Assembly: GCA_030638825.1 (NCBI GenBank)
Contig: DAOWDU010000014.1
Location: 1 to 46,458, forward strand
Reading direction: 5' to 3'
Length of the DNA: 46,458 nucleotides
Origin: a bacterium
GTDB taxonomy: Bacteria > Patescibacteriota > Minisyncoccia > JAHIHE01 > JAGLIN01
Part shown: piece after piece, positions 10,379 through 26,833 of the stretch
How the letters are laid out: every line of letters begins with the position of its first letter
Numbering within the stretch: position 1 is the first letter of the stretch
Made by a program: the position numbers and the translations under genes
The notes under the pieces: model-generated
Databases searched by the model: none
Told to the model about the DNA's origin: nothing
The model's input: the letters and a program-made list of their open reading frames with translations, nothing else

Positions 10379-13300
10379 TTATTTTGTCTCCCCTTTCCCT
10401 TTTCTTCTATAAAAGAAATACCAAGCGCCACCGGCAATAATTATGACAATAATCAAGAACGCGGGCAGATATTTTGAATATCTGTCGCCAGCGTATTCGC
10501 TGTCATCACCATTTTTTTCCTGAATATCCTGAATTGTAATTTCGCTTTTGTCTTCAGTTTCAGTTGTTTTTGTTTCGGTCACATCTTTATCTTCGACTGT
10601 TTCGTCTTTGTTTTCATCTTCGGCTTTATCTTCTTCATCTTCAACTCCGCCTACTCTGCCATATTCATCTTCCCCGTTTCCAGTTTCAGAATCTTCGCCA
10701 TCATCATCAGACATTTCAACGCTCTCGCTTAATATATCAGACATTCTCTCGCTAAATAACGCGACTTCCGCTTCTTGCTCTGCGGTTAGAGGGAATTCTC
10801 TCTGGCAATAAAGTTCGTTGATCTTTTTCTTTGTCGTAATATAGACATAACCAGTCGCTTTGTTATGGCTCCATGGGGAAAGAACATCATTTAAATATTT
10901 TTCCTGAAATCGAGAGACGGCATCAAAATCAACTTGTTCATAAATACCATTTACAAGAAGGTTTTCGCCTTCAAATTCATTCAAAAATCGTTCTACTTTT
11001 TCCACTTCAACGGGATTATTATCAGCGCCTAATTTGATATATTCCAGTAAATAATTACATTCTTCTGGAGGCGGTATCGGCGCTTCCGTTCCTTTTACTT
11101 CTCCCTCTTCAAAAACACAAAATACTTCATCGCCAACAACTTCCTCGCTGCCATTTCTATCCGCGACTGGTCTGAAATAATGCATCGCGCCATCTGTTAA
11201 TCCTGTAATCGTGACGCTATGTTCTTCATACATACTTCCTGATTCTTCATTGACAGAATTATATCCATATCCTGGCGCGTCGCCAAGATTTTCCGTATCT
11301 ACTGAATTATCATCATAAGCGACTTGATTAGTCGTGGTAATATTTGTCTTCCATGTTATCAACGCTTCGCCACTTTCTAAACAATCCGCTTTCTCGTCTG
11401 TTATTTTTATAACTGTTGGCGGTGTCCATCCACCACCACCTCCGCCGCCGCCGCCACACGAACCACAATCCTGCGGACAAGTGGAGCAAGTTTCGTTATT
11501 ATTACAAGTACCGTCTCCGCAATAAGGACTCGGCTCGTTATACTCATCATCATCTTCCGGGTCATAACTCTCCTCATTATTTACATCTCCGTCTGAATGA
11601 CAGCCCGGATCATCCGCATCGGTTAGTCCATCTTCGTCATCATCTAAGCCATTATTACATATAGCGTTAATAATGCATTGATTAGAACAATAAGCGTTAT
11701 CGCCATTATTTTCTCCTTCATCGCACTCCTCGTTATTTTCTTCATCTAAGACTCCATCGCCGCAATAAGATTCCACGATATTGATTATACATTCATTTGA
11801 GCATTCATCATCATCTATACTATTTCCGTCATCACAATCTTCGTCACCATTTTCAATTCCATCTCCGCAATATGGTCCAATTAGTTTTATCGTTTGACAA
11901 GAGCTTGAACAATAATCACAACTATCACCATAAACAGGATTACACTCAACGCCATTATAATCTCCATCATCACATTCCTCATCATTATCTTCATTTATAA
12001 TTCCGTCGCCGCAGTATGATTGGGGAGTCTCAATAAAAACGCACTCGACAGTGCAATTTGCCGATCCATCTGGTCCATCATCACATTGCTCATATCCGTC
12101 GTCTTGCGGACCGCCAGTTTCTTCGTCATTTGGCATTTGTTCAATTCCGTCGCCGCAATAAGTCAGATCGTTCAATGTACATTCATTTGAACAAGATTGA
12201 TGATCTCCAATTCCTTCCTGCCCATCGCATTCTTCGCCATCTTCCACAACGCCGTTTCCGCAATAAGAATTAAATAAATAATTACCAAAATCATAATTTT
12301 CTAAATTCTGCCCTTCAGGCAAAATGATATTTTGATATGAACCGCTAACTGGATAAGTCTGATTAAAAACATCTACTCCTGCTTTACCGCCCTCGTTAAT
12401 TTCATAAGTTCCAGGCAACAATCCCGAGAATTGATAACAGCCGTTTTCATCAGTTAATTGCGCGGCGTTAGAATGCCCACTTAAAATTATTTCCCAGTCA
12501 GGAATAGTTATAGTTTCATCATCTACATTTCCATCATTATCCGTATCTTCGTATTTACATCCGGAGACAGAACCATACTCGCACAACTGTTGAGAAATTT
12601 CTGTGTAGATAGTTGTGAGATCTCCGCTACTTGGCGCATAATAATAACCAGGAGAACCATCTCCTTTTTTAGCGCCAGTGATACTAGCAATCTCAGTTAG
12701 CATCGCAGTATTAATATCGCTTCCCAAACCAATCGTAAATATTTTATATCCTGCGCTCGCCGCAGCACTCGCCGCACTCAAAGCATGTTGTTTATTAGCT
12801 TCATTAACTGCATCATCATCTTCAATATAACGACCGCATTCATAATATTTAAGCTCATTATAATAAGGACAAGTCACTCTTCCGTCTGTCAAAAGAATAG
12901 CCACTTTCACCGCTTGTGGATTTGCTCTTACTGATCCTAATTCTGCGTTAGAAAAATAAATTGCATCTCCAATATTAGTTCCTCCGTCAGCATCTAAACT
13001 ATCAACGGCTAATTGAGTTTCTGCGTGATTATTAGATAACTCCTTATCTATCGGAAAAGTTGCTTCGCTTGCGTACGAAACCAGCGCTGACTGATCACCT
13101 GCTTTTAAATTGTCAATAAAACTATTTGCCGCATTCTGCGCGTTCGTTAATGGCTGAGCGGGACTCACACCGTCATCGTTCATACTACCCGACCGATCTA
13201 TTATCATTACCACATCAACAGCTGCCTCGCACATTTGCTGATTATCTCCCTCCGCTTTTAAAACATCTCCTCCAGGAGTAAGCACTCCTGCCATCGCTAT

Positions 13301-13381
13301 ATTCAGCAGCAACGCGATCATACTAAAGAAAGCTATTTTTTGATTAATCCCCTCTTTTGATTTTTTGTTAATTTTCATCAT
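10379..13381 (-). CDS. Membrane-anchored surface protein: vWA, SdrD-B-like, Cys-rich DUF4215-type repeats, FN3-like, peptidoglycan-binding-like domain, C-terminal TM
   Basis: Signal peptide, MIDAS DRSGSM and LLTDG, CG[DN]G...E.CD.G repeats, acidic linker, TM followed by RRKGK. Confidence 0.85.
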   Translation of the reverse strand: MMKINKKSKEGINQKIAFFSMIALLLNIAMAGVLTPGGDVLKAEGDNQQMCEAAVDVVMIIDRSGSMNDDGVSPAQPLTNAQNAANSFIDNLKAGDQSALVSYASEATFPIDKELSNNHAETQLAVDSLDADGGTNIGDAIYFSNAELGSVRANPQAVKVAILLTDGRVTCPYYNELKYYECGRYIEDDDAVNEANKQHALSAASAAASAGYKIFTIGLGSDINTAMLTEIASITGAKKGDGSPGYYYAPSSGDLTTIYTEISQQLCEYGSVSGCKYEDTDNDGNVDDETITIPDWEIILSGHSNAAQLTDENGCYQFSGLLPGTYEINEGGKAGVDVFNQTYPVSGSYQNIILPEGQNLENYDFGNYLFNSYCGNGVVEDGEECDGQEGIGDHQSCSNECTLNDLTYCGDGIEQMPNDEETGGPQDDGYEQCDDGPDGSANCTVECVFIETPQSYCGDGIINEDNDEECDDGDYNGVECNPVYGDSCDYCSSSCQTIKLIGPYCGDGIENGDEDCDDGNSIDDDECSNECIINIVESYCGDGVLDEENNEECDEGENNGDNAYCSNQCIINAICNNGLDDDEDGLTDADDPGCHSDGDVNNEESYDPEDDDEYNEPSPYCGDGTCNNNETCSTCPQDCGSCGGGGGGGGGWTPPTVIKITDEKADCLESGEALITWKTNITTTNQVAYDDNSVDTENLGDAPGYGYNSVNEESGSMYEEHSVTITGLTDGAMHYFRPVADRNGSEEVVGDEVFCVFEEGEVKGTEAPIPPPEECNYLLEYIKLGADNNPVEVEKVERFLNEFEGENLLVNGIYEQVDFDAVSRFQEKYLNDVLSPWSHNKATGYVYITTKKKINELYCQREFPLTAEQEAEVALFSERMSDILSESVEMSDDDGEDSETGNGEDEYGRVGGVEDEEDKAEDENKDETVEDKDVTETKTTETEDKSEITIQDIQEKNGDDSEYAGDRYSKYLPAFLIIVIIIAGGAWYFFYRRKGKGETK

Positions 13382-13393
13382 AAGCAAAGTTTA

Positions 13394-13416
13394 ATTGATT
13401 AAATATATAGAAAGTT
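13394..13416 (-). promoter_or_regulatory. 23-bp 5'-UTR motif shared by the two vWA paralogues (copy 1)
   Basis: ATTGATTAAATATATAGAAAGTT is identical at 18226-18248. Confidence 0.6.
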
Positions 13417-13512
13417 TGTTATTTTCAAATTTTATGTAAAAACAAAAAACACACCCCCTCCCAAGAGTTTGTTTTTTTATTTTTGTTTTTATTTTTTACT
13501 CAACCCAATCTC

Positions 13513-13546
13513 GGAACCAAGTTCCGTAGACACGGAACTTGGTTCC
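13513..13546. repeat. REP-like hairpin
   Basis: GGAACCAAGTTCCGT-agac-ACGGAACTTGGTTCC, 15-bp perfect arms, directly after a stop codon. Confidence 0.85.
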
Positions 13547-13560
13547 TGTTGTTTTTATTT

Positions 13561-16500
13561 CTACATACTATTCGCGCTTCCCGGCGTTCCTCGCTCCACC
13601 GCATTATCATTATCATCCCAGCCAGTTTTGGTCAAGGCTGTAAACCAACTACTCGCTGAAGTTCCATCTACTGTATTATTTATTCTGGACATTGATTTTT
13701 TATCTCCGTTATCTCCCGCTAATGGCGCGCCTGCTCCATCATCAGCTACATCAATTGGATTATTATTACTACTTTCCGTATCATAAAGCTTATATTGAAC
13801 TGCGGAACTAGGAAGAGAAATTGCTGAATCTATAAAATCAGGGGCAACATTTAAAACTGATTCTCCACCAGTAAACATATGATCTTCGCCATTATTAGAA
13901 ATAAGGAAATAGTCATCTGCTTCAAGTATTCCAGTGTTAATCACAAGCATGGGCGAGTCATTCTTATATATTGACCACGGAGTATCGCTGAAATTAATTT
14001 CAAGAGATGTCATATTTCTCAATTCAATCCACTCGTCGCTTGAAGAAACAGACGATCCCATCCACATTAATTCATTAATAATCACATCGCCTACGCTAAT
14101 ACTACTACTATTTTCCGTTTCACAAATAGCGCTACAGCCATCACCATTTTCTGTGTTTCCATCATCGCACTCTTCATCACCTTCCATGACACCATCGCCA
14201 CAAACAGTCTCCCCTTCTTCAATTACACACAAACTTGAGCATCCATCGCCATCATCTAAATTTCCATCATCACATTCCTCGCCACCTTCCATAACGCCAT
14301 CGCCGCAAATATATTCGTCTTCCCCGCAACTATCATTTTGAGCTCCTGGCGTTCCTAAATTGTTATTACTATAAGAAGATGTTGAAACGCACCAATTGGA
14401 CCCAATATTATTATCGTTAAGCGGATCATTTAAAATCATAGAGGCGCCGTTAGGATCTGGAAATTCTAGTCCTCCGTCATATTCTACCCTATCAATTTCT
14501 ACACTATTACAAATTAAAATAATTTCATCATCTGTGTTTCCTAAAGTGAAACTATAAACATAATCAGGAGTTATACCGTCATTTATTAAGGGATCAATAT
14601 TTTTAGCAAGCACTGCGTATCCGTTTGCTGGAATAATTAGCGCTTCTCCGATTACATGCGGGTCGCTTCCGTTGTCACCGATAGTGCATCCCTCCAAATC
14701 AAGATCACTGCCAGTCGTATTATATAGTTCAAACCATTCGCCATTGGCATCAGAAACAACATCAGGATTCTGCATAATTTCATTAATCACAATATCACCC
14801 GCGCCGATACTGTCGTCATCCTCTAATTCACAGATAGCACTACATCCATCGCCATTTTCCACATTTCCGTCGTCGCATTCTTCATCTCCCTCTCGTACGC
14901 CATCTCCGCAAACAGGTGCGCTACTTTCAATATTACAAACAGCGGAACAGCCATCACCGTCTTCAGTATTTCCATCATCGCATTCTTCATCACCTTCCAT
15001 AACGCCATCGCCACAAATATATTCATCTCCTCCACAGCTATCATTCTGAATTCCCGGCGTTCCCAGATCGCCATTGCTATAGGAAGATGTTGAAAGACAC
15101 CAGTTGGCAAAATCATTATTGTCATTGGCTGGATTATTTAGAATTATAGAAGCGCCGACTCCCTCTGTCCAGCTACTTTCCTCATCATAATTCACTCTGT
15201 TAATTTCTACACTGTCGCAAGTCAAAACAATTTCATCTTCATCGTTTCCTAAAGTAAAACTAGCGTAAACATAATTAGAAATTACACCGCCGTTTTCTTC
15301 GGTATTTCCATTCTTGGCAAGCACCGCGTATCCGTTTGCCGGAACTATTAGAGATTCTCCGATTGGATGAGAATTACTGCCGTCATCAGAAATAATGCAT
15401 CCTTCTAATTCAATGTCGCTACCAGTTGTATTATATACTTCAAACCATTCGCCATTCGCGTCACTTACGGCTGTAGAATCATACATAATTTCATTGATAA
15501 CTACATCATCTAATAATATTGCTACGGAATCATCACTGTCCCCATCTCCGCCATCATTACTTTCTGTTTTACAATCAAAACTGCATCCATCGCCGTCTTC
15601 TGTATTTCCGTCATCGCATTCTTCGCCATCGTCCTCAATTCCATTTCCGCAAATCGGAAAATAATTCCCAAAATCATAGCCGACTTCTTCTTCTCCATCT
15701 TCTAAAATAATATCGTAAGACAATGTCTGCGGATAAGTCTGAATAAAATTAAGACCCTGATTATTCGCTTCTGATACAGTATAATTTCCGCCTGATAATC
15801 CTGTAAAAGAATAACAACCATCGCCATTAGTTAATTGCGTTAACTCTGCGTCTCCGCTTAAACTTATTTCCCAGTCAGACAAAGTCAATTCGCCAAAGAT
15901 CTCACCATCATTATTTGAGTCTTCATATTTACATCCGGAAATAGAACCGTACTGGCAAATCTCATAAGCAATTTCGCTGAATATTTCTTCCAGTTCATCA
16001 GCAGTTGGCGCGTTGTAATATTGAGCGCCAGTGTCAGCAGCGATATTCTGAAGCATTACCTCGTTAATATCATTTCCCAAACCAATCGTAAATATTTTAA
16101 TTCCGGATAGAGCGGCCTCCGCGGCCTTTTCTACGGCATAGGCGACATCAGCTGGATTTTCATTAAAACCATCTCCATTTGGTTTGTTTGCTAATCCATC
16201 AGTCAAAAGTATTTCTATCTTTAGAACATCTTCAGCGCTGCTTGAAAATTCATCATTAGCAAGTCCAATCGCGTCTCCTATGTTCGTCGCTCCAGACGCT
16301 GCTAAACTACTTATCGCTGTTTGAGTGATGAGGTGATCGTTAGAAAAAGGCTTGTTTAAATTAGCTGTTGTGCTAAATGAAACCAAGGCCGAGCGATCGT
16401 CAGAACCTAATTTTCCCACAAAACTGTTTGCCGCGATTTTTGCCTGGCCGAGACGAGTAGGGATTTCCCAACCCATACTTCCAGAGCGATCTACTATAAC

Positions 16501-18213
16501 CACTGTATCTAATTTAACCCGGCATAAACTTTCCAAAAGAACACAGCTTGCGGAACAAGTTTGATTTGCGCCTACTCCATCCTCGCCGTCACATTCTTCA
16601 TCGCCCTCTTTAATATCATTCCCGCAAATAGGACCTTGATATGGATCTAAATAAATACAAATCATTTCTAAGTTCACACTATTAGCGTGTATATCTGGCG
16701 GACACTCTGAAGTAGTGTTCATATAAACTGTCTGCAATCCTTCTACAAAAGAAAAGGCTCCTAAAGGTTCAAATCTAGTCGTGATTGCGTCTGGATCAAG
16801 ATCATCTTCAGAAATTATTCCATCCGTTCCGTTAATTTCTAAATAGAACGCTTCATTTGTTTGCGCTTGACCAAGATTACCGCGAGATGATAAACCATAA
16901 ACTTCCCCTTGAGCAGCCCAAGGAGCACTAATATCTACACTATCCTGAATTCGTCCTGATGAATGGCAACCATCTCCAACAACCCACAAAGCAGGATCTA
17001 AATCAATAATTAAATCAGCGTCCTCACAGAGACTTCTTATCTCGCATTGCGTTGAACAAGTTGAACCAGGCTCGTCGCTATTGTCATTGCCCTCGTCACA
17101 TTCTTCGGGTATTTCTAAAATCCCATTTCCACAGTCGTCTTGAACTGGAAAATAGTTTCCAAAATCTTTACCAGTCAAATGTTCTTCATTGCCTAAAGTT
17201 ATATCGTAAGATAATGATGGCGGATATGTTTGGATAAAATCTGTTATTCCATCCTTACCTCCTTCGCCAACAATATAATTTCCAGCCAATAAACCTGAAA
17301 ATTGATAACAACCATTTTCATCCGTCAGCTGCGTAATCGGACCATTTGTTTCGCCAGTTAAAATTATTTCCCAGTCAGAAATAGCGTCTTCTATAACAAA
17401 ATCTTCATTATCGCCGTCATTGTCAATGTCGTTGTATTTACATCCCGAGATAGATCCGTATTCGCATAACTCCCACCTAATAGATTCGTAGATGCTTTCC
17501 AAGTCTTCACTGTTCGGCGCGTGATAATATGCCGCGCCAGTGGTCTCTGCGACTTCCTGTAACATCTCTTCGTTTATTTTATATTGATCACCCAATCCGA
17601 TTGTAAATATTTTATATCCCAAGCCCGCGGCAGCGTTTGCGGCATCCAAAGTATAAGCGATATCCTCATCATCTTCCACAAAACCGCACATGCCATATAT
17701 TGAAGAATCATAGTAAGGGCAGGTCGCTCTTCCGTCCGTTAGAAGAATGGCCGCTTTCACCGCTTGCGGATTTGTCCTTGCGGATCCCAACTCTTGATTG
17801 GAAAGATAAATCGCATCGCCGATGTTTGTTCCGCCTTTTGCTCTTAAGTTACTGACCGCTGTTTGAGTAACAGAATGATCGCCAGACAATTCTTTGTTTA
17901 AAGTTGCCTCGCTCGCGTACGAAACTACTGCTGACTGATCATCCGCGCCCAAGTTGCTGAGAAAATCGTTTGCTGCGTTTTTCGCCTGCGATATTCTAGT
18001 TGGAATTTCCCAGCCCATGCTTCCAGACCGATCCATTATCAAAACAACATCAACCGCCGCTTCGCATAGCTCTTCTTCTATCGGCGCTCCTCTTGCTTCT
18101 GGAGCAGACAGAAATACGCCTGCCATTGAGACATTCAAGAGCATTGAAACTACGCTCAAGAAAGCTACCTTTCTGCAAACCCCCTCGTATGATTTTTTAC
18201 TTAGTTTTTTCAT
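13561..18213 (-). CDS. Large secreted protein: 2x (vWA + SdrD-B-like), DUF4215-type Cys repeats, 3 lamin-tail domains
   Basis: Two DRSGSMGWEIPTR vWA starts, CGDG..EECDDGN repeats, three VINE[IL]M...EW[FI]E.[YR]N...GTPG..N modules. ATG at 18213. Confidence 0.85.
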   Translation of the reverse strand: MKKLSKKSYEGVCRKVAFLSVVSMLLNVSMAGVFLSAPEARGAPIEEELCEAAVDVVLIMDRSGSMGWEIPTRISQAKNAANDFLSNLGADDQSAVVSYASEATLNKELSGDHSVTQTAVSNLRAKGGTNIGDAIYLSNQELGSARTNPQAVKAAILLTDGRATCPYYDSSIYGMCGFVEDDEDIAYTLDAANAAAGLGYKIFTIGLGDQYKINEEMLQEVAETTGAAYYHAPNSEDLESIYESIRWELCEYGSISGCKYNDIDNDGDNEDFVIEDAISDWEIILTGETNGPITQLTDENGCYQFSGLLAGNYIVGEGGKDGITDFIQTYPPSLSYDITLGNEEHLTGKDFGNYFPVQDDCGNGILEIPEECDEGNDNSDEPGSTCSTQCEIRSLCEDADLIIDLDPALWVVGDGCHSSGRIQDSVDISAPWAAQGEVYGLSSRGNLGQAQTNEAFYLEINGTDGIISEDDLDPDAITTRFEPLGAFSFVEGLQTVYMNTTSECPPDIHANSVNLEMICIYLDPYQGPICGNDIKEGDEECDGEDGVGANQTCSASCVLLESLCRVKLDTVVIVDRSGSMGWEIPTRLGQAKIAANSFVGKLGSDDRSALVSFSTTANLNKPFSNDHLITQTAISSLAASGATNIGDAIGLANDEFSSSAEDVLKIEILLTDGLANKPNGDGFNENPADVAYAVEKAAEAALSGIKIFTIGLGNDINEVMLQNIAADTGAQYYNAPTADELEEIFSEIAYEICQYGSISGCKYEDSNNDGEIFGELTLSDWEISLSGDAELTQLTNGDGCYSFTGLSGGNYTVSEANNQGLNFIQTYPQTLSYDIILEDGEEEVGYDFGNYFPICGNGIEDDGEECDDGNTEDGDGCSFDCKTESNDGGDGDSDDSVAILLDDVVINEIMYDSTAVSDANGEWFEVYNTTGSDIELEGCIISDDGSNSHPIGESLIVPANGYAVLAKNGNTEENGGVISNYVYASFTLGNDEDEIVLTCDSVEINRVNYDEESSWTEGVGASIILNNPANDNNDFANWCLSTSSYSNGDLGTPGIQNDSCGGDEYICGDGVMEGDEECDDGNTEDGDGCSAVCNIESSAPVCGDGVREGDEECDDGNVENGDGCSAICELEDDDSIGAGDIVINEIMQNPDVVSDANGEWFELYNTTGSDLDLEGCTIGDNGSDPHVIGEALIIPANGYAVLAKNIDPLINDGITPDYVYSFTLGNTDDEIILICNSVEIDRVEYDGGLEFPDPNGASMILNDPLNDNNIGSNWCVSTSSYSNNNLGTPGAQNDSCGEDEYICGDGVMEGGEECDDGNLDDGDGCSSLCVIEEGETVCGDGVMEGDEECDDGNTENGDGCSAICETENSSSISVGDVIINELMWMGSSVSSSDEWIELRNMTSLEINFSDTPWSIYKNDSPMLVINTGILEADDYFLISNNGEDHMFTGGESVLNVAPDFIDSAISLPSSAVQYKLYDTESSNNNPIDVADDGAGAPLAGDNGDKKSMSRINNTVDGTSASSWFTALTKTGWDDNDNAVERGTPGSANSM

Positions 18214-18225
18214 AATTTGCAAGTT

Positions 18226-18248
18226 ATTGATTAAATATATAGAAAGTT
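18226..18248 (-). promoter_or_regulatory. 23-bp 5'-UTR motif (copy 2)
   Basis: Identical to 13394-13416. Confidence 0.6.
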
Positions 18249-18263
18249 ATTTGTTGGATTGTT

Positions 18264-21044
18264 TTATTTCTCCGCTTCCTGAATCGCTCCTTGAGAATAT
18301 TTCCAGGATTGCCAATAATACCGAACCGCTTTTGCAGGATTGCTATTTTCATATTCCCAAGCTTGCTCTATTTCTTTCTCCGCTTTGGAAATCATTTCCT
18401 CAAAGTTTTTTTGTTGTTTCTCGCTTTTAACAAAAGTACTTTTAGCTTCACTCAAAATTACTTGCGCAATAATTTTATCAGCTAAAACTAAATCTTTAAT
18501 AACTTCTTCAAAAACATCTCCTGACAATTCCTGACGATTTAAATATAATTCCATTCTCGCAATAGCCGTCCTTTCAGACACGAAAACTTTATTTCCTTTT
18601 TTAGGATTAAGATGAATTTCATCTTCCCAGAGATCGTCCTTTAAAGATTTCTTAATATTTTTAATAACATCATCAATTTTTTTGTCTACTTTTTTATCTC
18701 CCGTTTTTGCTCTTTCTAAACTTTCTACTGTTTCTTCTTTAAGTTGTTTAGCGCTCTTGATTTCTACTTCTACAATTGCAGTATCAGTATCACTTGAGAT
18801 TCCATCTGAAACTTCTAAAAGAATTTCTCCTGTATATGAATTGTAATAAGTGTATTCTGTTGTAGAGTTGATTAACCAATCTGTTTCAAAAATATTATCA
18901 TTATTGAAATCCCAACGATATTTCAAGGGCTGATTTTCAGGATCAGTTGAACCTATCGCATCAAAAATTATTTTAATCCCCGCATAACCAGAATATGGTC
19001 CATTGGCATCTGCGACTGGAGGAAGATTTTCAGCGACAAAAGTGGAGATTGATTTTTCTCTCGTAAAAGGATCGCCCGCTCTATTTGTATTTCCTGACGC
19101 TTTGATATTGAAAGTATAACTTCCTGATTCCTGAGTATTATCAAATGTATTAGCATAAATTCCATCATTCGCTCCGCCATCATTATGATTACCATCATCG
19201 TAAAGTTGAAGGGTAAAAACAGTTTGAGCAGGAGTAGTCGCCTCAACACTAAAACTTGCGCTAGCGACATACTGCGGATCATCGCTATCTACAACTGGAT
19301 CCTGCGCAAAAGCGGTGATAGTTATTTCTTCGCCCTGAATATACTCAGGCTTGTTTAAGTTCGCTCCAAAGATCAAACCATTTATACCAGAAAGAGTAAA
19401 GACAAACGGTTCTCCTTCAGTTGGAACGTTTTCACCATAAAATTTTAGTTGCCATTGTCCATGAGTTGGATTTTCAATCCTGTAAAACTCATAGGTATCT
19501 CCTTCTGTAAATTCAATATCTGAATCACTTGTATTATGATTGATTTCCTTTCCATTTGGATCAACCAGAGTCAAATCTATATTACTGCCTGGCCACGAAA
19601 GAGAAAAGGTAACATTATGCATACTGGAATCAAGATAGGCAAATTTCGTTATTGTTTCTTGTGGTTTAATTTTCTCCTTAATTTTTATTATTGTATCTTC
19701 CCCTGAAATTTCTGACCAAAGATCTTGATAAATTTCTTGTAATGCTTCAGAAGTAGCGGCAAATTTATAGACACATCCAGTTTGTTGGGCAAGATTATTT
19801 AAAAGCTCCATATCAGAATTAAAACCAAGTCCGACTGTGCAAACTTTTATTTTATCTTTTTCTATTCCATTTATTACATCCGCCACCCAAGGAGGCGTAT
19901 TTTCCCAGCCGTCGCTCATTAGAATAATCGCTTTTTCTGAATCTTTTGTCCCAAGGGTTTTAAGCTGATTATGTCCTTCTTGCAATCCTGCGCCGACTGA
20001 AGTCATTCCCCATGCTTGAATATTATCAATTGCGTTTCTAATCTCCCATTTCACAACACTGGGTCTGCTTTTTTCAATTTCAGTTAAAGGATAGTCAACA
20101 ACGGCATTATCAGCAAAACTGGTTACTCCTATTTTGTGTCCAGTTTGCATATAATCAACAAATTGCTTAGCAGCGCTTTTAGCGAAAATCATCGGAAATC
20201 CAATCATACTTCCTGAACGATCAATAACAAGATCAACGTCCATAGTTTTAAAATAGGTGTAGGGAATATAGCCATCTCTTTTTAATTCGTTTTCAATGTC
20301 ATATTTGCTATCTCTTACTTTCCAATAATACCCCATAGATTCAGATACCTCTAAATTTTTATGAGGAATTTCAGAGTCTATAAATTTATTAAACAACATC
20401 GCATGACTGCCTTTCACATTAAGTAAATCTCCCCTTTTCAAATCATCATATTCATCTAACTTTCTAGAAATTTTAGGAAGTGACCATGTTGATTCTCTCG
20501 GATTTAAATTCCAAGATCTGGAAACAAAACCTGAACAATCAATTCCAACAGCGTGAGATGATCTATTTCCATATCGCGCATCGCCAGCGCATTTTCTATT
20601 TTCAACGCCTTCTTCAAAATCTCCATATCCTTTCATTTCTTTCAATCTTAAATCAATCCCATCAATTTCAATACTTGAACATCCTCCCCTTTGATAAGGA
20701 ATACTAATAGTTTCTTTCCAAACATCTGTCTCCTCTTCGTTTTCGTCTTTTTCTTTTTCTGCTTTCCATCCTCTTTCTTCTGTCCAAGTTTTATAAGTAT
20801 TCCTGTCTGGAGTATTAACTATGCATGCTATTTCTTTCACACATTCCCCTTTTTTATCCCATTTGATACAACACTTATTATGACAAATATTATCTTCTGT
20901 TGGTGTCCAAACATAAGTTTTATAGCTCTCTGCAATAGACATCATTTCATCTCTCGTAGCTATTGCAAAAGATGTCTGCGCTATAGCAAAACTGAACAAG
21001 AACAGAACTGCTAAAAACGATAATTTTTTGTTTAATATTTTCAT
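18264..21044 (-). CDS. Secreted protein: NlpC/P60-like N-terminus, vWA, choice-of-anchor-X-like, PKD, helical tail
   Basis: Signal peptide, GIDCSGFVSRSW...HAMLF, VIDRSGSM/LMSDG, LYDDGNHNDGGANDGIY, PPVADANGPY...YRWDFNND. Confidence 0.8.
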   Translation of the reverse strand: MKILNKKLSFLAVLFLFSFAIAQTSFAIATRDEMMSIAESYKTYVWTPTEDNICHNKCCIKWDKKGECVKEIACIVNTPDRNTYKTWTEERGWKAEKEKDENEEETDVWKETISIPYQRGGCSSIEIDGIDLRLKEMKGYGDFEEGVENRKCAGDARYGNRSSHAVGIDCSGFVSRSWNLNPRESTWSLPKISRKLDEYDDLKRGDLLNVKGSHAMLFNKFIDSEIPHKNLEVSESMGYYWKVRDSKYDIENELKRDGYIPYTYFKTMDVDLVIDRSGSMIGFPMIFAKSAAKQFVDYMQTGHKIGVTSFADNAVVDYPLTEIEKSRPSVVKWEIRNAIDNIQAWGMTSVGAGLQEGHNQLKTLGTKDSEKAIILMSDGWENTPPWVADVINGIEKDKIKVCTVGLGFNSDMELLNNLAQQTGCVYKFAATSEALQEIYQDLWSEISGEDTIIKIKEKIKPQETITKFAYLDSSMHNVTFSLSWPGSNIDLTLVDPNGKEINHNTSDSDIEFTEGDTYEFYRIENPTHGQWQLKFYGENVPTEGEPFVFTLSGINGLIFGANLNKPEYIQGEEITITAFAQDPVVDSDDPQYVASASFSVEATTPAQTVFTLQLYDDGNHNDGGANDGIYANTFDNTQESGSYTFNIKASGNTNRAGDPFTREKSISTFVAENLPPVADANGPYSGYAGIKIIFDAIGSTDPENQPLKYRWDFNNDNIFETDWLINSTTEYTYYNSYTGEILLEVSDGISSDTDTAIVEVEIKSAKQLKEETVESLERAKTGDKKVDKKIDDVIKNIKKSLKDDLWEDEIHLNPKKGNKVFVSERTAIARMELYLNRQELSGDVFEEVIKDLVLADKIIAQVILSEAKSTFVKSEKQQKNFEEMISKAEKEIEQAWEYENSNPAKAVRYYWQSWKYSQGAIQEAEK

Positions 21045-21077
21045 TCTATTTTTTATTATTAAATTATTTATTTAAGT

Positions 21078-22244
21078 CTAATTTATTTGTGAATATTTAA
21101 AAATTTTAAGACCTTCGTTTTCAAAAGTCGCCATCCAATAAATATCTTCACTATTTGTTATACGAGTTCTTCTAAATTCTCGTGTATAATATCCATTACA
21201 TCCAGATTTTTTGGTAAGTATATCAGATTTTGGCTTTTTAAATAACTCTTGTAAGGGTATACTTTGATCAATTTCCGATAGTAATTTTCCACTCTTATTA
21301 TATTTCCAAAAAAAATCATCTATGTAATAATCATCATCCCCAACTGATCCGTATTCATATCCAATACTAAGATAAATATTTCCTTCTTTATCAAAACCCT
21401 CGTAAGACGCATAAGCTCTTTTAGAAAGTTCTATCGCAAACTCTTTTTGAATCAAGCCTGCTCTGTCTTTAATCTGAACAGTACGTGTTGCCCAACCAAT
21501 TCCTCCTGTGAAATAAAATCCTTTTTTATCTCTTGAAATATTTCCTTTATAGCTATTAGTTTTCCACTCATCACCGTTTTTTCCAATCTCATAAAACAAA
21601 TAATCATCGTCATTATAATTATCTATACTTATTTCAACCATTATATTTCCATTCTCATCAAATTCTATTCCTTCGTTTCCCATACCTGGATTTTTTCCAG
21701 GCAAAGAATATGAATCAAGCATTTCTCCTGACATACTATGTTTATAAACAGTATCACTACCAAAACTCAAAATATAAATATACCCATCCTGAATTTTAAT
21801 ATCTGTAGTTCCTCCAATACCAATAACAAAATCTCTCAAGTATTTTCCGCTCTTATCATATTCTATAACTCTTTCATTAATGCTATCTAAAATAAAAAGG
21901 TGATTATTGTTATCATTCACATCAAAACTCTGTGGACCGTAAACTAAACCAGCGCCACTTTCATCACCTCCGAAGCTTTCAATTCCTACCTCTCCCACCC
22001 CTTCTCCCCACTCCGCTTCAACAAAAAGTTCCGCTTCGTAAGTTTCCAGCTCAACTGGCTCTATTGGATCTGGCTCTTGATTATTATTATTATCTACAGG
22101 CTCAACGTTTTCAACAACATCAACAGGTAAATTATTTCTTTTTTTTATTTCCGAAAATTGAAAAATTAAAAACTCTATAATCAAAGCAAGCGCAACAATA
22201 AATACCGCTATGAGAATTTTTTTTGGGATGTTTTGTTTTGGCAT
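21078..22244 (-). CDS. Membrane-anchored NHL/beta-propeller-like protein
   Basis: N-terminal TM; GPQSFDV..LFILDSINERVIEYDKSGKYL repeat-like blades. Confidence 0.65.
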   Translation of the reverse strand: MPKQNIPKKILIAVFIVALALIIEFLIFQFSEIKKRNNLPVDVVENVEPVDNNNNQEPDPIEPVELETYEAELFVEAEWGEGVGEVGIESFGGDESGAGLVYGPQSFDVNDNNNHLFILDSINERVIEYDKSGKYLRDFVIGIGGTTDIKIQDGYIYILSFGSDTVYKHSMSGEMLDSYSLPGKNPGMGNEGIEFDENGNIMVEISIDNYNDDDYLFYEIGKNGDEWKTNSYKGNISRDKKGFYFTGGIGWATRTVQIKDRAGLIQKEFAIELSKRAYASYEGFDKEGNIYLSIGYEYGSVGDDDYYIDDFFWKYNKSGKLLSEIDQSIPLQELFKKPKSDILTKKSGCNGYYTREFRRTRITNSEDIYWMATFENEGLKIFKYSQIN

Positions 22245-22284
22245 AGTAAATTAAAATTAAGAGTAATTGATTGCGACTAATACC

Positions 22285-23191
22285 TTATTTATCCCCATTT
22301 TTTAAATACTTCTTAACCTCCCGATCAAAATCAGATATATATAATTGATCTTGAATCGGTCTGTATTTTTCAAACTCGCTTTCGGCAAATGCTTTGGCAA
22401 TTTCTGCCGTTATTTTTCCTGCATTCTCCAAAATTTCCTCTCCATTAAATTTCAGAAAAACATTTAATTTCTCCGACCAATCTTTCATTGTTATTGGAAT
22501 TCCTTTTTCCGCTTGGAGCTTTTTTCCAAGTCATCAGTCCCATATAATCTTTTTTGTGATCAGCTCTTTTAGAAATAAGCTCTGCGGCGGTGTTGCCGTG
22601 CGTAGCGTAACGGAGCTTGTTTTGCACAGTGGCAAAAAATGTTTTTGTAGTTTCTGAATCAAGATCATAGTCCATCGCAGTCGCATAAATATCTGTAATT
22701 TGCTGATAAAAATTTCTCTCGCTTTCACGAATATCACGAATTTCAAGAATTAAATCCTTAAAATATTGTTTATTAAAATACGCCCCACTTTTCAATCGTT
22801 CGCTATCTAAGGCATATCCTTTTATCGCATAATTTTTCAAAACTTTTGTCGCCCATCTTCTAAAATCTGTCGCTCTTTCAGAATTTATCCTGTATCCAAG
22901 CGAAATAATCACTTCTAAGTTGTAGTGCTTGGTATTGTAGCTTTTTCCATCTTTGGCAGTTATTCGGAATTTCCGAATAACTGAATTTTCATCTAATTCT
23001 TTTGATAAAAAAATATTTTTCAAATGCTCATTTATATTTGGAATATTGACATCAAAAAGCTTCGCGATTAATTTTTGCGTTAACCAAACATTTTCATCTT
23101 GCATGCGAACTTCAATTCCATCTTCTCCCGCTTGAGAAGTAAATATCAAAAATTCCGCCGCGCTATTTCTAATAATTAGTTTTTTTGTCAT
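22285..23191 (-). pseudogene. rhuM: RhuM-family protein, split by an internal deletion/frameshift
   Basis: WLTQKLIAKLF, IRDIRESERNFYQ and FFATVQNKL in ORF 22445-23191. The C-terminus (QAEKGIPITMKDW...AESEFEKYR) is in another frame, ending at 22285. Confidence 0.85.
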
Positions 23192-23329
23192 AATGATTTT
23201 TACTTAAAGCCTTAATAATTCAAATTACAAAAAATCACCCTATTTTATTTCACTTAAAAAGAGCCTTAATTATGCGTTATTTAATTGCGCGTTATATTTT
23301 TATTTTTCAGCGTTATGTGTTTTGAAGCA

Positions 23330-24271
23330 TTATATTTTTGTTTTTACTTTTATAATTCTTTTAATCGCTATAAACAAAAGGATAATTATAAACCCGCCTA
23401 TCATTAGCCAACCGAACATTAAATTTCCTCCACCGATGCGGGAAATGAAATTTGAGACACTAGAACTAACATTAGAAATAACAGCAGCCCCAATCGCAAA
23501 AGAAAAATCATTTTCATACCTATTTTTTTCATTGACGATTATGCTAATTTCAGCCACATATTTGCCATCCTCCAATCCTGTGGTTTGAATTTTAAGAGGA
23601 GTGACTTCTTCCATTGAAAAAGAATTAACACTATCTGATTCTTCTGGAAAAGGATAGATAGCGTTATGCGCTATTTTTCCATCCTTCTTTAATTTTACCT
23701 GAATCTGCGGACGAATTTTTATGTTGCTTTGATTGTCATATATTATTCTAATCAACAAAGGATCTCCTGTTTTTAAATTATACGAGTTGGGAATTATTGA
23801 GGTTTTGACACTAACTTCTTCTTTGTCTGTAACTGTAATATTTACCTCCCTGTCTATCCTCTGGCTAACAGCCGTTAAAACATCTTCTTCTAATTCTTCA
23901 TTTTTAGAAGAAACCGTGATACCAACAATACCTGAATATTCTCCATTGGGAGTGCCTTCCGGGATTGAAAATTTTGCGATTATATCATATCTTGAATTTT
24001 GAGGTATGCTTATTTCCTCAATCGATATTTCTGGGTTTTTGGGATCGTAAAATTTTACCCAATCGGCAATATCGTTTTCAGCTATTATTTGAAATATATC
24101 TTCTGTTTTTTCGGTATTAAAAAAATAGAGAGTTTTTTCAAAAACCTCTCCTTGTCGGGCATTTTTAATAATAATCGGTTCTGTCATTTGTCCAATTCCA
24201 AAACTGGTCAACGGCTGAAACATTGCTATTGCTAAAACTAAAATTAAGATTGAAACAATTATTTTTTTCAT
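23330..24271 (-). CDS. Secreted/membrane-anchored Ig-like protein (DUF916-like architecture)
   Basis: Signal peptide, two beta-rich domains (PEGTPNGEYSG; GKYVAEISI), C-terminal TM with basic tail. Confidence 0.6.
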   Translation of the reverse strand: MKKIIVSILILVLAIAMFQPLTSFGIGQMTEPIIIKNARQGEVFEKTLYFFNTEKTEDIFQIIAENDIADWVKFYDPKNPEISIEEISIPQNSRYDIIAKFSIPEGTPNGEYSGIVGITVSSKNEELEEDVLTAVSQRIDREVNITVTDKEEVSVKTSIIPNSYNLKTGDPLLIRIIYDNQSNIKIRPQIQVKLKKDGKIAHNAIYPFPEESDSVNSFSMEEVTPLKIQTTGLEDGKYVAEISIIVNEKNRYENDFSFAIGAAVISNVSSSVSNFISRIGGGNLMFGWLMIGGFIIILLFIAIKRIIKVKTKI

Positions 24272-24343
24272 ATCACAATTTTATTTATTTTGCCAATTAA
24301 TTTTATTCTAATCTTTTCCTTAAACTTGTCAACACACACTACA

Positions 24344-24409
24344 GAGAAGATTGAAGTTAAATATTTTTTTAACTTCAATCTTCTCCGAGGGACGAGAAGC
24401 TCGCCCCTC
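24344..24409 (-). terminator. Twin stem-loops after the 377-aa gene (terminator or mRNA stabiliser)
   Basis: 17-bp perfect IR at 24344-24360/24369-24385, plus GAGGGGCGAG-ctt-CTCGTCCCTC (minus strand) at 24387-24409. Confidence 0.6.
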
Positions 24410-24457
24410 TGCAAATCAATTATTTTTCATATTTTCATAACAAGAATAATAAGCATT

Positions 24458-25591
24458 CTAGTTTATACAAACCGTCAAATGCGGAGCAGGAACAGCGATT
24501 AGGGTCATCGTGCCAGTATAGCAATCTCCGTCATGTGTTGGCGGAAACTTGGAAATCAGAATTGAGAAATCAATTTCATTCTTTTCTGATAAATCTAACG
24601 GACCGGGCAACAATCTATATGTATAAGGACGATAATTCACAAAACTTACATCACTGCCAACTCTGCCATCATATAGGACATTATATATGTCATCAGTTTT
24701 ACCCAAATCCATATCATCTTGCATTACTTTCAGGGAAAGCCGCGTGTTGCCTACATTTCTGACTGTTGCAGGATTAGCTCCTGTTCCTGAATCCCAAGTA
24801 AGATCACCACTAATAATCTTATGCGTATTCAGTTTCACATTGCCATAACTTACAGCCGTAAAGTCCTTTTCAAAAGCGGTTAAAGGAAGATAGGTAAAGT
24901 GATTCTCCAGTGTTCCCTGCAACCCAACTTTATCCTGAGCAACTGCCCATACTTTGTAATTTCCAGATGGGTCTTCATAAGAGATAGTTTTGTCGCCACA
25001 ATACACAGCGGCTGTTAATTTCATCAATTCGCCTGTGTCAACATTACAGATTTCGTCATAGTCATAGCCAGTGTTAAATACAGGAAGGTTATTATTTCCA
25101 TTCTTCACCTTACTACAGAAAAGTTCATATCCATCATCCAAACTCAATCTCGTCAAAGTATCTTCTTGCATAAGTTCACCGCAACCCAAACCAGATTGAT
25201 CGCTTAACGGAACATGGCTATCTCCTAAAGATATGCCCTCTGGATAAAAAACATCAGCATACACTGCGTCAATATCAGCTAGTCCATCCGGATCAGTTAC
25301 TACAGCGCAGAGAGTAATTGTCTTATTGACCTGATATTGTCCTGACGGCATAAATTGAGCGCCAGCGGTTGTCGCATCATCAGTTCCTAAATATTCTCCA
25401 GCGGCATTCCTAGTCGCATTCATCTCCCATTTAGCTTTAACAATGGGAGTAGCGCCACCACTTGTGTCACGAAGTAGACTAGTGTTAGCAGCGCCATCTG
25501 TCGCTACCGTTACATTCAATCCAAATGTACAAACACTAACCGCGACCAATGAGAACATGGCGATCGCTTCTTTAATTAGTTTAATTTTCAT
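24458..25591 (-). CDS. Secreted hypothetical protein, possible structural surface subunit
   Basis: Strong AAGGAG SD, signal peptide, beta-rich, ends YTGTMTLIAVP. Confidence 0.7.
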   Translation of the reverse strand: MKIKLIKEAIAMFSLVAVSVCTFGLNVTVATDGAANTSLLRDTSGGATPIVKAKWEMNATRNAAGEYLGTDDATTAGAQFMPSGQYQVNKTITLCAVVTDPDGLADIDAVYADVFYPEGISLGDSHVPLSDQSGLGCGELMQEDTLTRLSLDDGYELFCSKVKNGNNNLPVFNTGYDYDEICNVDTGELMKLTAAVYCGDKTISYEDPSGNYKVWAVAQDKVGLQGTLENHFTYLPLTAFEKDFTAVSYGNVKLNTHKIISGDLTWDSGTGANPATVRNVGNTRLSLKVMQDDMDLGKTDDIYNVLYDGRVGSDVSFVNYRPYTYRLLPGPLDLSEKNEIDFSILISKFPPTHDGDCYTGTMTLIAVPAPHLTVCIN

Positions 25592-25857
25592 AGTTTTATT
25601 CTCCTTAACCTCTGCCTCCTGCTAAGATTATAGAAGTAAGATATTTACTTCCATGTCATCCCAGCCTTTGGCAGGGTTTTTTAATTAATTAATTAAGATT
25701 TTTTAAGTTACTTGACTAAACTTTTCACCCTTTATATTTTATCATTCTCAAGAGAATAATTAATTAATTAGAGCTTAAGCAAGCAACCTCGACCTTTAAG
25801 TTTTATTACGATAAACTCGTAATTTTAAATTATAAAATATTTATTATTTATTCACAT

Positions 25858-25927
25858 AAAAAAGAGCTCACAAAACTACTCAACTGCTTTAAATCAAAAA
25901 GCAATTAACTAATCAATGTGAGCCCTC
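25858..25927 (-). terminator. Leader terminator/attenuator
   Basis: Minus strand GAGGGCTCACA...TGTGAGCTC-TTTTTT, with an extended inner stem containing G-U pairs. Confidence 0.7.
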
Positions 25928-25972
25928 AGTTTTCTGTCATCCGCCTTGGGCGAACTCAGTTTGCTGTCAGGC
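25922..25972 (-). promoter_or_regulatory. Duplicated TGACAG(C/A)AAACTGAG RNA motif overlapping the terminator 5' arm
   Basis: Copies at 25955-25969 and 25925-25939, separated by the hairpin TTCGCC-CAA-GGCGGA. Confidence 0.6.
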
Positions 25973-26045
25973 AAATTATACAAATTGTAATTTGTAGTAA
26001 CTAATAGTAATTTATAGCAACCCGTTACAACTAATTACAACTATA

Positions 26046-26291
26046 TTAATATATCTCTTCTTCATTATTATATTCTCCGCTATCCCTGTTATTATTCTGT
26101 GTTTTATTATTACGATTTTTATTTCTTCTCACCACTCTCGTTATCTCCTTGCTCATTATCACTCCGTCCTGAATAATAATATTTATTCTTCCAAAATTCA
26201 ACTCGCGAATGTCGTTGATAACATCCACCTCATCTCTAGAAATCTGGCTTAACTTTTGCCTCTGCTGATTTTCCATTTGTTGGCTTTCCAT
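26046..26291 (-). CDS. Small DUF2292/YezD-like protein
   Basis: Core IRELNFGRINIIIQDGVIMSKEITRVVR fits the helix + FG-x-I-x-I-x-I-[QH]DG beta pattern of the family. Confidence 0.65.
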   Translation of the reverse strand: MESQQMENQQRQKLSQISRDEVDVINDIRELNFGRINIIIQDGVIMSKEITRVVRRNKNRNNKTQNNNRDSGEYNNEEEIY

Positions 26292-26521
26292 AATTTGTAT
26301 TTTATGGATTATGGAATTTTAATTCTAATCACTTTTCTATTTCAACTGCTTCAGAAAATTGACTTGGAACTTTCTAAATTTAAGCCAAATAAAAACAACC
26401 AAAACAAAACAAAATTTCTCTGGCCGTTGTCCACCCTGAATAACATTATGACATATCTACTCCTATATTTTTGTCAATTCAAGATTTCAGACCCTCCCTA
26501 TTTCTATCCCTTGCCAAACTT

Positions 26522-26549
26522 ATTATCCCACTCATAAAAACTATGTCAA
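26522..26549 (-). promoter_or_regulatory. Putative promoter upstream of the DUF2292-like gene
   Basis: TTGACA-16 bp-GATAAT with extended -10 TG. Confidence 0.45.
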
Positions 26550-26674
26550 GGGTCTAATCTAACTTTCTTTTTCTAACAACTTTTTACTGTAAACTTAGCG
26601 GTTTATTTTTAAAATATTTAATAGTGACGAGTAATTTTTGGGCTTGAGTTTTAAGTTATCCACAGATTTTTATT

Positions 26675-26814
26675 TGTCATTGCGAGGAGGCTGAACGAAC
26701 GAAGTGAGAGAAAAGCCGACGAAGCAATCCCGTGACTATGCACAATGAATTTAATTCTGGGATTGCTTCGTCGCCATTTCGTTCGCTACGCTCCTCAGGC
26801 TTCTCGCAATGACA
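26675..26814. repeat. 140-bp TGTC-tagged composite palindromic element (MITE/REP-like)
   Basis: Termini TGTCATTGCGAG...CTCGCAATGACA; inner IR CGACGAAGCAATCCC/GGGATTGCTTCGTCG. Confidence 0.85.
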
Positions 26815-26833
26815 TTTTGTAATCCAAACAAAT

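Follow-up and report, generated by a model that had tools for sequence, protein, structure and literature searches.

The minus strand of a 46,458-nucleotide (nt) stretch of a Patescibacteriota genome (GenBank assembly GCA_030638825.1, contig DAOWDU010000014.1; hereafter the window, whose numbering is used throughout) carried a small open reading frame (ORF) of the DUF2292/YezD type, 81 amino acids (aa) long. It was followed by a 51-nt RNA element built into the base of an intrinsic terminator (T1), and then by a row of genes for large surface proteins (Table 1). This arrangement is best explained, with a probability of roughly 55%, as a protein-dependent transcription antitermination switch, in which the small protein, as a predicted dimer, would clamp a rod-like fold of the RNA, block T1 and open the surface-protein operon. 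Comparison of related and distant genomes showed that the RNA is conserved and covaries, that it overlaps the terminator, and that it is tied to the protein in two phyla; from these patterns we infer that the protein binds the RNA and that binding favors read-through.

Within the window, the core motif UGACAG(C/A)AAACUGAG occurred twice (25969-25955 and 25939-25925, minus strand) with a spacing of 30 nt, and 73 nt separated the stop codon of the small ORF from the element. The two cores were the sole matches in the window at up to two mismatches (0.26 expected; two or more matches in 3 of 100 shuffles) and the sole matches across the 1.145-Mb genome at up to one mismatch. A generic hairpin-and-core scan of that whole genome returned no further copies, the best look-alike lying inside a coding region on the opposite strand. 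It is through its conservation in relatives, described below, that the motif stands beyond chance. A covariance model matched the element in the window at 25856-25980 with 128 bits. Rfam 15, searched with positions 24000-27500, gave 10 matches at E <=10, all far below the gathering thresholds and none on 25856-25980. A k-turn was considered for the UGA/AG loop and rejected by direct reading, as the strand expected to read GA reads AG.

The lower stem of T1 was formed by 11 pairs between GAGGGCUCACA (25927-25917) and UGUGAGCUCUU (25872-25862), with six U at 25863-25858, and the GGGC at the 3' end of the element doubled as the 5' arm of this stem. The folding energy of the 201-nt stretch was -62.4 kcal/mol; shuffled versions averaged -39.4 (z -6.1), and none of 200 folded as well. 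With the 3' arm of T1 present the terminator fold wins, so that the default state should be termination. A simple consensus terminator scan did not list T1 because a long compound hairpin forms its loop. An earlier reading of the window, made from its letters alone (hereafter the sequence-only reading), had named a promoter, an 81-aa gene and a core duplicated at 30-nt spacing on the minus strand. It had also described the 3' strand of the motif as the 5' arm of an 11-base-pair (bp) terminator stem with six U, making the two folds mutually exclusive; all of these features were present as named.

The element was conserved in related genomes, which carry the public labels Paceibacterota, Parcubacteria or Patescibacteria. 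The small protein was present in 10 of the 24 genomes of the window's family (window genome counted), and the element lay 3' of its gene in all ten loci with the same order of parts, one locus ending at a contig end. Distances from stop codon to motif were 7, 9, 19, 20, 20, 21, 25, 56, 73 and 177 nt. The largest belonged to genome G011, where a G/C-rich palindromic repeat, probably a small mobile one, flanks the switch, at about 30-110 nt past the ORF and once more behind the terminator, and explains the spacing of 177 nt.

The cores were invariant or nearly so in this clade, against protein identities of only 37-70%, and the central hairpin paired in all ten loci despite differing sequences and lengths of 15 to 99 nt. 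In a nine-sequence alignment, three of the four pairs counted at the base of the central hairpin varied on both sides, with 100% of cells paired, while the T1 lower stem was 95.6% paired and displayed G-U/G-C changes and one double change. Overall, 97.8% of cells were paired (91.2% in shuffles) and the covariation score reached 0.292 (0.153 in shuffles), a value attained by none of 500 shuffles. T1 folded at -24.7 to -33.3 kcal/mol in all nine complete loci.

Searching with the covariance model, RNA and protein were both found in 10 of the 32 genomes of the order and neither in the other 22. A protein-based scan of metagenome contigs yielded six loci, all with the element; two of them look identical to genome loci in the set and one was cut off. 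One relative, G003, encoded a second copy of the element (67 bits) without a small ORF, after a promoter-like site (TTGACA-18-TATATT). From the U tract of this copy it was 25 nt to the start codon (ATG) of a 1623-aa protein carrying GT2, GT2 and GT4/GT1 domains, and transcription of the glycosyltransferase operon must pass the terminator. Stand-alone copies directly ahead of genes, leaving no room for a promoter, fit an antitermination factor acting in trans.

As judged from sequence comparison, the 81-aa ORF is a real, conserved protein of the DUF2292/YezD type. Its match to PF10055 (DUF2292, Pfam) scored 23.3 bits for a cut-off of 22 over only 19 residues, and 22.9 bits in the whole-genome scan, which is marginal taken alone. 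Nine of the ten clade orthologues matched PF10055 at E <=0.1, and alignment of these ten sequences, at the identities given above, displayed a conserved core. Comparison by hhalign of a 43-sequence clade profile with 22 Bacillales YezD proteins gave a probability of 96% (E 4.4e-9, 41 columns). The DUF2292 assignment of the sequence-only reading therefore stood, marginally by hidden Markov model and with the backing of the profile comparison. Only one of the ten clade members matched OscA (NCBIfam NF033785; E 0.021), and the protein was not assigned to that family. HutP, CAT/PRD (BglG family) and ANTAR domains were not found in the small protein or its clade (Pfam, E <=0.1), DUF2292 being the only family matched.

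AlphaFold2 predicted a helix (residues 19-30) followed by two strands (34-41 and 44-52), with a predicted local distance difference test (pLDDT) value above 90 over residues 21-50 and disordered tails. Its structural neighbor in Atlas was a DUF2292 cluster (template modeling score 0.77), which is a lead only. A sequence search of PDB returned a single spurious match (E 1.1), Foldseek against PDB gave nothing better than E 3.5, and a wide structure search with VIA-align reached at best Z 2.6 and offered no functional lead from the fold. Homodimer prediction scored 0.48, the best control scoring 0.00; prediction runs had at least 83% of contacts in common, with a partner pLDDT of at least 72. 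Of proteins with solved structures, 20 of 30 pairs and 1 of 23 single chains attained the mark used for dimers, counts that are only rough because an alignment of our own was supplied to the prediction. The protein is thereby predicted to be a symmetric dimer, strand 34-41 pairing with itself and helix packing on helix.

Folded without the 3' arm of T1, the element took the same minimum free energy (MFE) structure, the rod, in 13 of 13 sequences. From its closed end, the rod comprised P1 (GCCU/GGGC), a GA/A internal loop and a helix between the copy-1 CAG and the copy-2 CUG; an A-rich loop (4x4 or 4x3) separated this from a second helix, between the copy-1 CUG and the copy-2 CAG, beyond which came the mirror A/GA loop and the variable hairpin. 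It was better by 4.9 to 8.3 kcal/mol than a four-way junction with two local mini-hairpins in all 13 sequences, and folding energies thus point to the rod rather than the junction. Covariation cannot choose between the two, since P1 and the CAG/CUG triplets are invariant in the clade. There was one informative position: at the foot of the central stem, two sequences replace the G of a G-U pair by A and so pair as A-U. In all 13 sequences P1 and the terminator base overlapped. The pseudo-two-fold RNA predicted in each of them fits the symmetric dimer modeled for the protein.

The same association of protein and RNA was found in Bacilli. A canonical YezD gene of 47 aa in one Bacillaceae genome was followed by a hairpin running into a terminator, and then by a cysH-like gene; in order, the hairpin consisted of GC, UGA, the 5' strand of a 4-bp stem, the loop UCAA, the 3' strand of the stem, AG and GC. 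PF10055 was matched in 26 of 61 Bacillales genomes, and the generic motif GC-NGA-stem-loop-stem-A(G/A)-GC, searched from -12 to +140 relative to the stop codon, was present at 19 of 29 Bacillales DUF2292 loci compared with 10 of 1093 background windows. The terminator shape behind these hairpins was read by eye at the loci inspected. An exact pattern occurred in 17 of the 61 genomes, namely 17 of the 26 with DUF2292 and none of the 35 without, and in two Bacillales genomes a stand-alone copy led a cysH-like gene, DUF2292 being encoded on another contig. At three loci the UGA of the hairpin internal loop was itself the DUF2292 stop codon (offset -5).

A slightly wider pattern gave 61 matches in 50 of 401 Bacilli genomes (two matches for a reversed-pattern control), while PF10055 was matched in 147 of the 401 and also in a Bacillus subtilis control genome. 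DUF2292 was present in 47 of the 50 pattern-positive genomes, although such co-occurrence counts in Bacilli are not phylogenetically independent. Two of the three pattern-positive genomes without DUF2292 had their matches inside long ORFs; the third is G883, weighed below. In 14 Bacilli genomes the only match was unlinked (on another contig than the listed DUF2292 gene, or over 5 kb away from it), and all 14 encoded DUF2292; two unlinked copies were inspected and each had a terminator behind it. Both middle pairs of the 4-bp stem could form in 60 of the 61 matches (counted by eye), with four stem types: CUAG/CUAG, CCGG/CCGG, CCAG/CUGG and CUGG/CCAG.

The window shared with the Bacilli hairpin-terminator the half-site grammar GC(C)-UGA-short stem-NNAA loop-stem-AG-G(G)C, which both window cores fit, the placement of the 3' strand within the base of an intrinsic terminator, and the tie to a DUF2292 gene. 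The two forms differed in build: Bacilli have one hairpin of about 21 nt with a 4-bp stem, whereas the window has two cores with 3-bp stems and an inserted hairpin. The window lacked a lone hairpin with an outer stem of its own, GCC and GGC there belonging to different copies. Targets differed as well, being surface proteins and glycosyltransferases in Patescibacteria and mostly sulfur genes in Bacilli. The single-hairpin form fits an aside of the sequence-only reading, by which the duplication would have arisen from one hairpin.

In Bacilli, the surroundings of yezD suggest what could set the amount of the protein. An S-adenosylmethionine (SAM) riboswitch lay 100 to 140 nt upstream of yezD in three of the seven loci scanned. 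Apart from SAM riboswitches, the Rfam search of those seven Bacillales loci returned one weak match resembling transfer-messenger RNA and no family for the hairpin. A passage of PMC4342826 lists a SAM riboswitch ahead of cysH, citing Mansilla et al. 2000. A SAM riboswitch ahead of yezD fits a positive factor produced under sulfur shortage. In these three loci yezD was in turn followed by the hairpin-terminator; with the cysH-like genes read downstream at another locus and at the stand-alone copies, this suggests a two-step cascade.

The proposed switch would operate as follows. Transcription from the conserved promoter would cross the small gene and then yield the 51-nt RNA, in which two copies of UGA-CAG-NAAA-CUG-AG, joined by the variable hairpin, could form the rod with its mirror-related GA/A loops, closed by GCCU/GGGC. 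GGGC is also the first part of the T1 lower stem, and the RNA alone would adopt the terminator fold, leaving the switch off by default. A DUF2292/YezD-like dimer would attach to both half-sites and hold the closing helix in a clamp; since the 3' strand of the hairpin is the terminator base, a protein holding the hairpin closed should prevent termination. With the bottom of the terminator stem blocked, RNA polymerase would continue through the structured leader to the genes for surface proteins. Stand-alone copies, such as the one before the glycosyltransferase operon in G003, would be served in trans by the same factor. No sensor part is evident in the small protein, so the signal probably lies in its amount, which would be set by the SAM riboswitch in Bacilli and could be set by a leader hairpin (T0, described below) in the window.

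Two elements of the sequence-only reading found no support. It had proposed positive feedback, yet the gene lies upstream of T1 in the window, so that read-through leaves the gene's own transcription unraised. It had also considered possible processive action; the internal hairpins that it listed at 24344 and 13513 have neither U tracts nor the motif. The antitermination switch that it proposed kept its support in the conserved RNA, the protein-RNA tie in two distant phyla and the unlinked leader copies. In five Bacilli genomes the pattern and the DUF2292 gene shared a strand, the pattern preceding the gene by about 1.7-1.9 kb, which would place the gene within the controlled operon and could there give positive feedback.

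Among other explanations, a metabolite- or ion-sensing riboswitch, whose small ligand would stabilize P1 and prevent termination with the protein merely a neighbor, is unlikely. It would account for the classic layout of an aptamer P1 overlapping a terminator, the near-invariant internal-loop nucleotides and the existence of stand-alone leader copies, and pseudo-symmetric tandem architecture is known from some riboswitch classes. On the other side, the single-hairpin form of Bacilli measures only about 21 nt, and the element tracks DUF2292: genomes with and without the protein carried it in 10 of 10 and 0 of 22 cases in the order and in 17 of 26 and 0 of 35 cases in Bacillales, and 47 of the 50 pattern-positive Bacilli genomes encoded the protein. 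DUF2292 is thus the constant partner of the RNA over two phyla in which the controlled genes are wholly different, which is hard to square with one shared ligand.

An arrangement without any switch is still less probable. The structure would then be an elaborate mRNA 3' end, either a stability element or a small RNA derived from the 3' untranslated region, and the surface genes would have their own promoter, as the very stable terminator (-33 kcal/mol) and the further conserved leader with -10-like hexamers behind it would allow. Against this stand the copies located 20 to 60 nt before start codons in G003 and in Bacilli, where there is no room for a promoter, and the overlap of P1 and terminator base kept in 13 of 13 sequences.

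That another factor acts on the RNA, or that DUF2292 promotes termination or affects mRNA stability or translation, appears improbable to much the same degree. The protein lacks similarity to known RNA-binding folds (Foldseek E >3; VIA Z <=2.6), which favors such a role for something else, but the bound hairpin would share nucleotides with the 5' arm of the terminator, so that stabilizing it should oppose termination, and the order SAM riboswitch, yezD, hairpin-terminator, sulfur genes suits an activator under sulfur shortage. Attenuation of the leader-peptide type, in which the position of the terminating ribosome on the small ORF picks the fold and the protein product is irrelevant, would suit the motif beginning 7-25 nt past the stop codon in seven of ten loci and its UGA being the stop codon in 3 of 19 motif-positive Bacillales loci, but is very unlikely given the distances of 56, 73 and 177 nt in three loci, the copies without any upstream ORF and a protein fold conserved across phyla, unlike leader peptides.

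Several observations weigh against the antitermination switch itself. P1, of 3-4 pairs only, and the rod rest on energy rules, and the 270 nt of further conserved leader with -10-like hexamers precede the first surface gene. The sequence-only reading had expected a conserved hairpin-terminator behind DUF2292 homologues in general; this was true of the ten clade loci and of 19 Bacillales loci, while 10 of the 29 Bacillales DUF2292 loci had no adjacent motif by the definition used. Three other Patescibacteria genomes with a homologue showed no such RNA beside the gene; the protein is rare elsewhere in the phylum, these three being all that were found among 400 genomes sampled. In Bacilli, 100 of the 147 genomes with DUF2292 lacked the pattern, which is a narrow one. 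G883, without DUF2292, had two intergenic pattern matches without a terminator; the two were near-identical, formed part of a longer conserved sequence, and may represent another kind of RNA. Co-occurrence among related genomes is not independent, much of it reflecting one module present or absent.

Protein-dependent antitermination is already known, and the proposed switch resembles several described systems in part. HutP of the Bacillus subtilis hut operon works as a hexamer, recognizes UAG triplets set at intervals and depends on histidine and Mg2+. As in the hut operon, a small RNA-binding antiterminator would be encoded by the first gene, followed by a terminator and the regulated genes; unlike HutP, the present protein matched DUF2292 only in Pfam and has a core of about 35 residues, a predicted dimer and a hairpin or rod with UGA/AG loops as its RNA. 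BglG, SacY and LicT offer a closer likeness at the RNA level, with a dimeric domain binding an imperfect hairpin (the ribonucleic antiterminator, RAT) that has two similar internal loops and a 3' part overlapping the 5' arm of the terminator. Here, by contrast, neither a CAT nor a PRD domain was detected, the RNA differs in sequence, and nothing suggests control by sugar-transport phosphorylation. ANTAR regulators (EutV, AmiR, NasR) share the recognition by a dimer of two similar small RNA modules by a terminator, but their targets are two hexaloop hairpins, as opposed to a conserved internal loop with a 3-4-bp stem and no ANTAR domain. Phage lambda N with nut likewise combines a small protein and an RNA hairpin in suppressing termination; N acts processively at distant terminators through a polymerase-bound complex, whereas here the RNA overlaps one terminator and nothing suggests processivity.

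As a case of protein-dependent antitermination, the proposed switch would bring a new protein family, a new RNA motif and an unusual tandem form in Patescibacteria. The literature searched, which did not cover an older cysH-leader paper, held no description of this RNA or of a DUF2292 mechanism. If the switch is as proposed, the common, uncharacterized DUF2292 family would gain a mechanism as RNA-binding antiterminators, and reference RNA libraries a new terminator-embedded motif. An unrecognized layer of sulfur-assimilation control in Bacilli would follow, directly testable in a model organism, along with the first defined switch for the large surface-protein and glycosylation operons of Patescibacteria, whose regulation is almost unknown. 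The surface-protein and glycosylation genes are plausibly involved in attachment to other cells. The tandem pseudo-symmetric form would further provide a clean natural case of an RNA site duplicated to suit a protein dimer.

A broader proposal, held tentatively and at somewhat less than even odds, is that DUF2292/YezD proteins are antiterminators of a widespread, minimal kind: dimers, about 35 residues in their core, that bind RNA and act on UGA/AG hairpins in terminators. In Patescibacteria the hairpin would have been duplicated into the rod and the pair moved from sulfur metabolism to adhesin-like proteins and glycosylation, with an upstream sensor leader, the SAM riboswitch in Bacilli and T0 in the window, setting the amount of protein.

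Table 1. Features of the candidate switch and its surroundings, in window coordinates
Feature	Position	Strand	Remarks
Candidate antiterminator RNA element, 51 nt	25922..25972	-	P1 GCCU/GGGC, two cores and central hairpin; predicted pseudo-two-fold rod
Core copy 1, UGACAGCAAACUGAG	25955..25969	-	Near-invariant in 13 sequences
Central variable hairpin P3, 15 nt	25940..25954	-	UUCGCC/GGCGGA
Core copy 2, UGACAGAAAACUGAG	25925..25939	-	Last G and following GGC shared with terminator
Outer flanks	GCC 25972-25970; GGC 25924-25922	-	
T1 intrinsic terminator	25858..25927	-	11-bp lower stem, variable upper hairpin, six U
Small-protein ORF, 81 aa	26046..26291	-	DUF2292/YezD-like; conserved core about residues 18-55; N/K/R-rich disordered tail
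Second conserved leader structure	25697..25800	-	Long stem between two conserved blocks, variable apical insert
First gene after switch, 377 aa	24458..25591	-	Signal-peptide-like N-terminus; no Pfam family
Co-oriented downstream genes	10379..24271	-	313-aa (no Pfam family), RhuM-family gene, 388-aa, three giant proteins
Promoter-like site TTGACA-16-GATAAT with TG extension	26522..26549	-	Upstream of small gene; putative function
T0 leader hairpin and U run	26391..26427	-	Between promoter and small ORF; terminator-shaped; putative function

Upstream of the small gene, the promoter-like site (26549-26522) agreed with the consensus at 11 of 12 positions, and its CTTGACA and GATAAT were aligned in six of six related loci. 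The leader of about 230 nt between this site and the 81-aa ORF contained T0, whose stem ACGRCCA/UGGUUG, followed by a U run, was found in all six aligned loci and was also predicted by the fold of the window. T0 had neither the core motif nor an Rfam match. It may be a second attenuator, gating synthesis of the small protein.

Downstream, 270 nt of leader separated T1 from the first surface gene. The blocks of the second leader structure were kept in seven of eight loci, its long stem was the MFE structure in six of six sequences folded singly, and it displayed compensatory differences between genomes. RNAalifold did not recover the long stem from the raw alignment, owing to two misaligned rows. 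The surface genes may also have their own promoter in this leader.

A 377-417-aa protein with a similar N-terminus (by eye) was encoded behind the switch in the six loci with enough sequence, and a 308-338-aa protein with a shared GIGQ/GIGL motif was found further downstream in those same six. The three giant proteins of the window harbored VWA/PKD/NlpC-P60, VWA/LTD/DUF4215 and VWA/SdrD_B domains. The co-oriented row extended over about 15 kb, from 25591 down to 10379, and its genes may lie in one transcript with the switch. The operon of about 16 kb claimed in the sequence-only reading was borne out as a row of co-oriented surface genes; with the 270-nt conserved leader and a possible internal promoter before the second leader structure, a continuous transcript is plausible but unproven.

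The internal hairpins noted earlier at 24344 and 13513 do exist as strong hairpins (24331-24398, and near 13513), with no U run directly behind them, and neither is a further copy of the switch. At 24331-24398 (minus strand), between the 377-aa and 313-aa genes, there were two adjacent strong hairpins, one with a 19-bp perfect stem, followed by a promoter-like site (TTGACA-16-TAGAAT); for want of a U tract they are not a copy of the switch. The RhuM-family gene (22445-23191, minus strand; PF13310, E 1.9e-69) sits within the surface-gene row and looks like a mobile insertion. In one related genome, an ORF with an N-terminus resembling it (by eye) occupied a different place in the row. The gene upstream of the switch (26834-28135, minus strand) encoded 433 aa ending in a sortase domain (E 7.5e-17), with a weak resemblance to DHH in the N-terminal part; together with a DUF11/DUF7507 protein further upstream, this suggests a sortase-anchored surface system.

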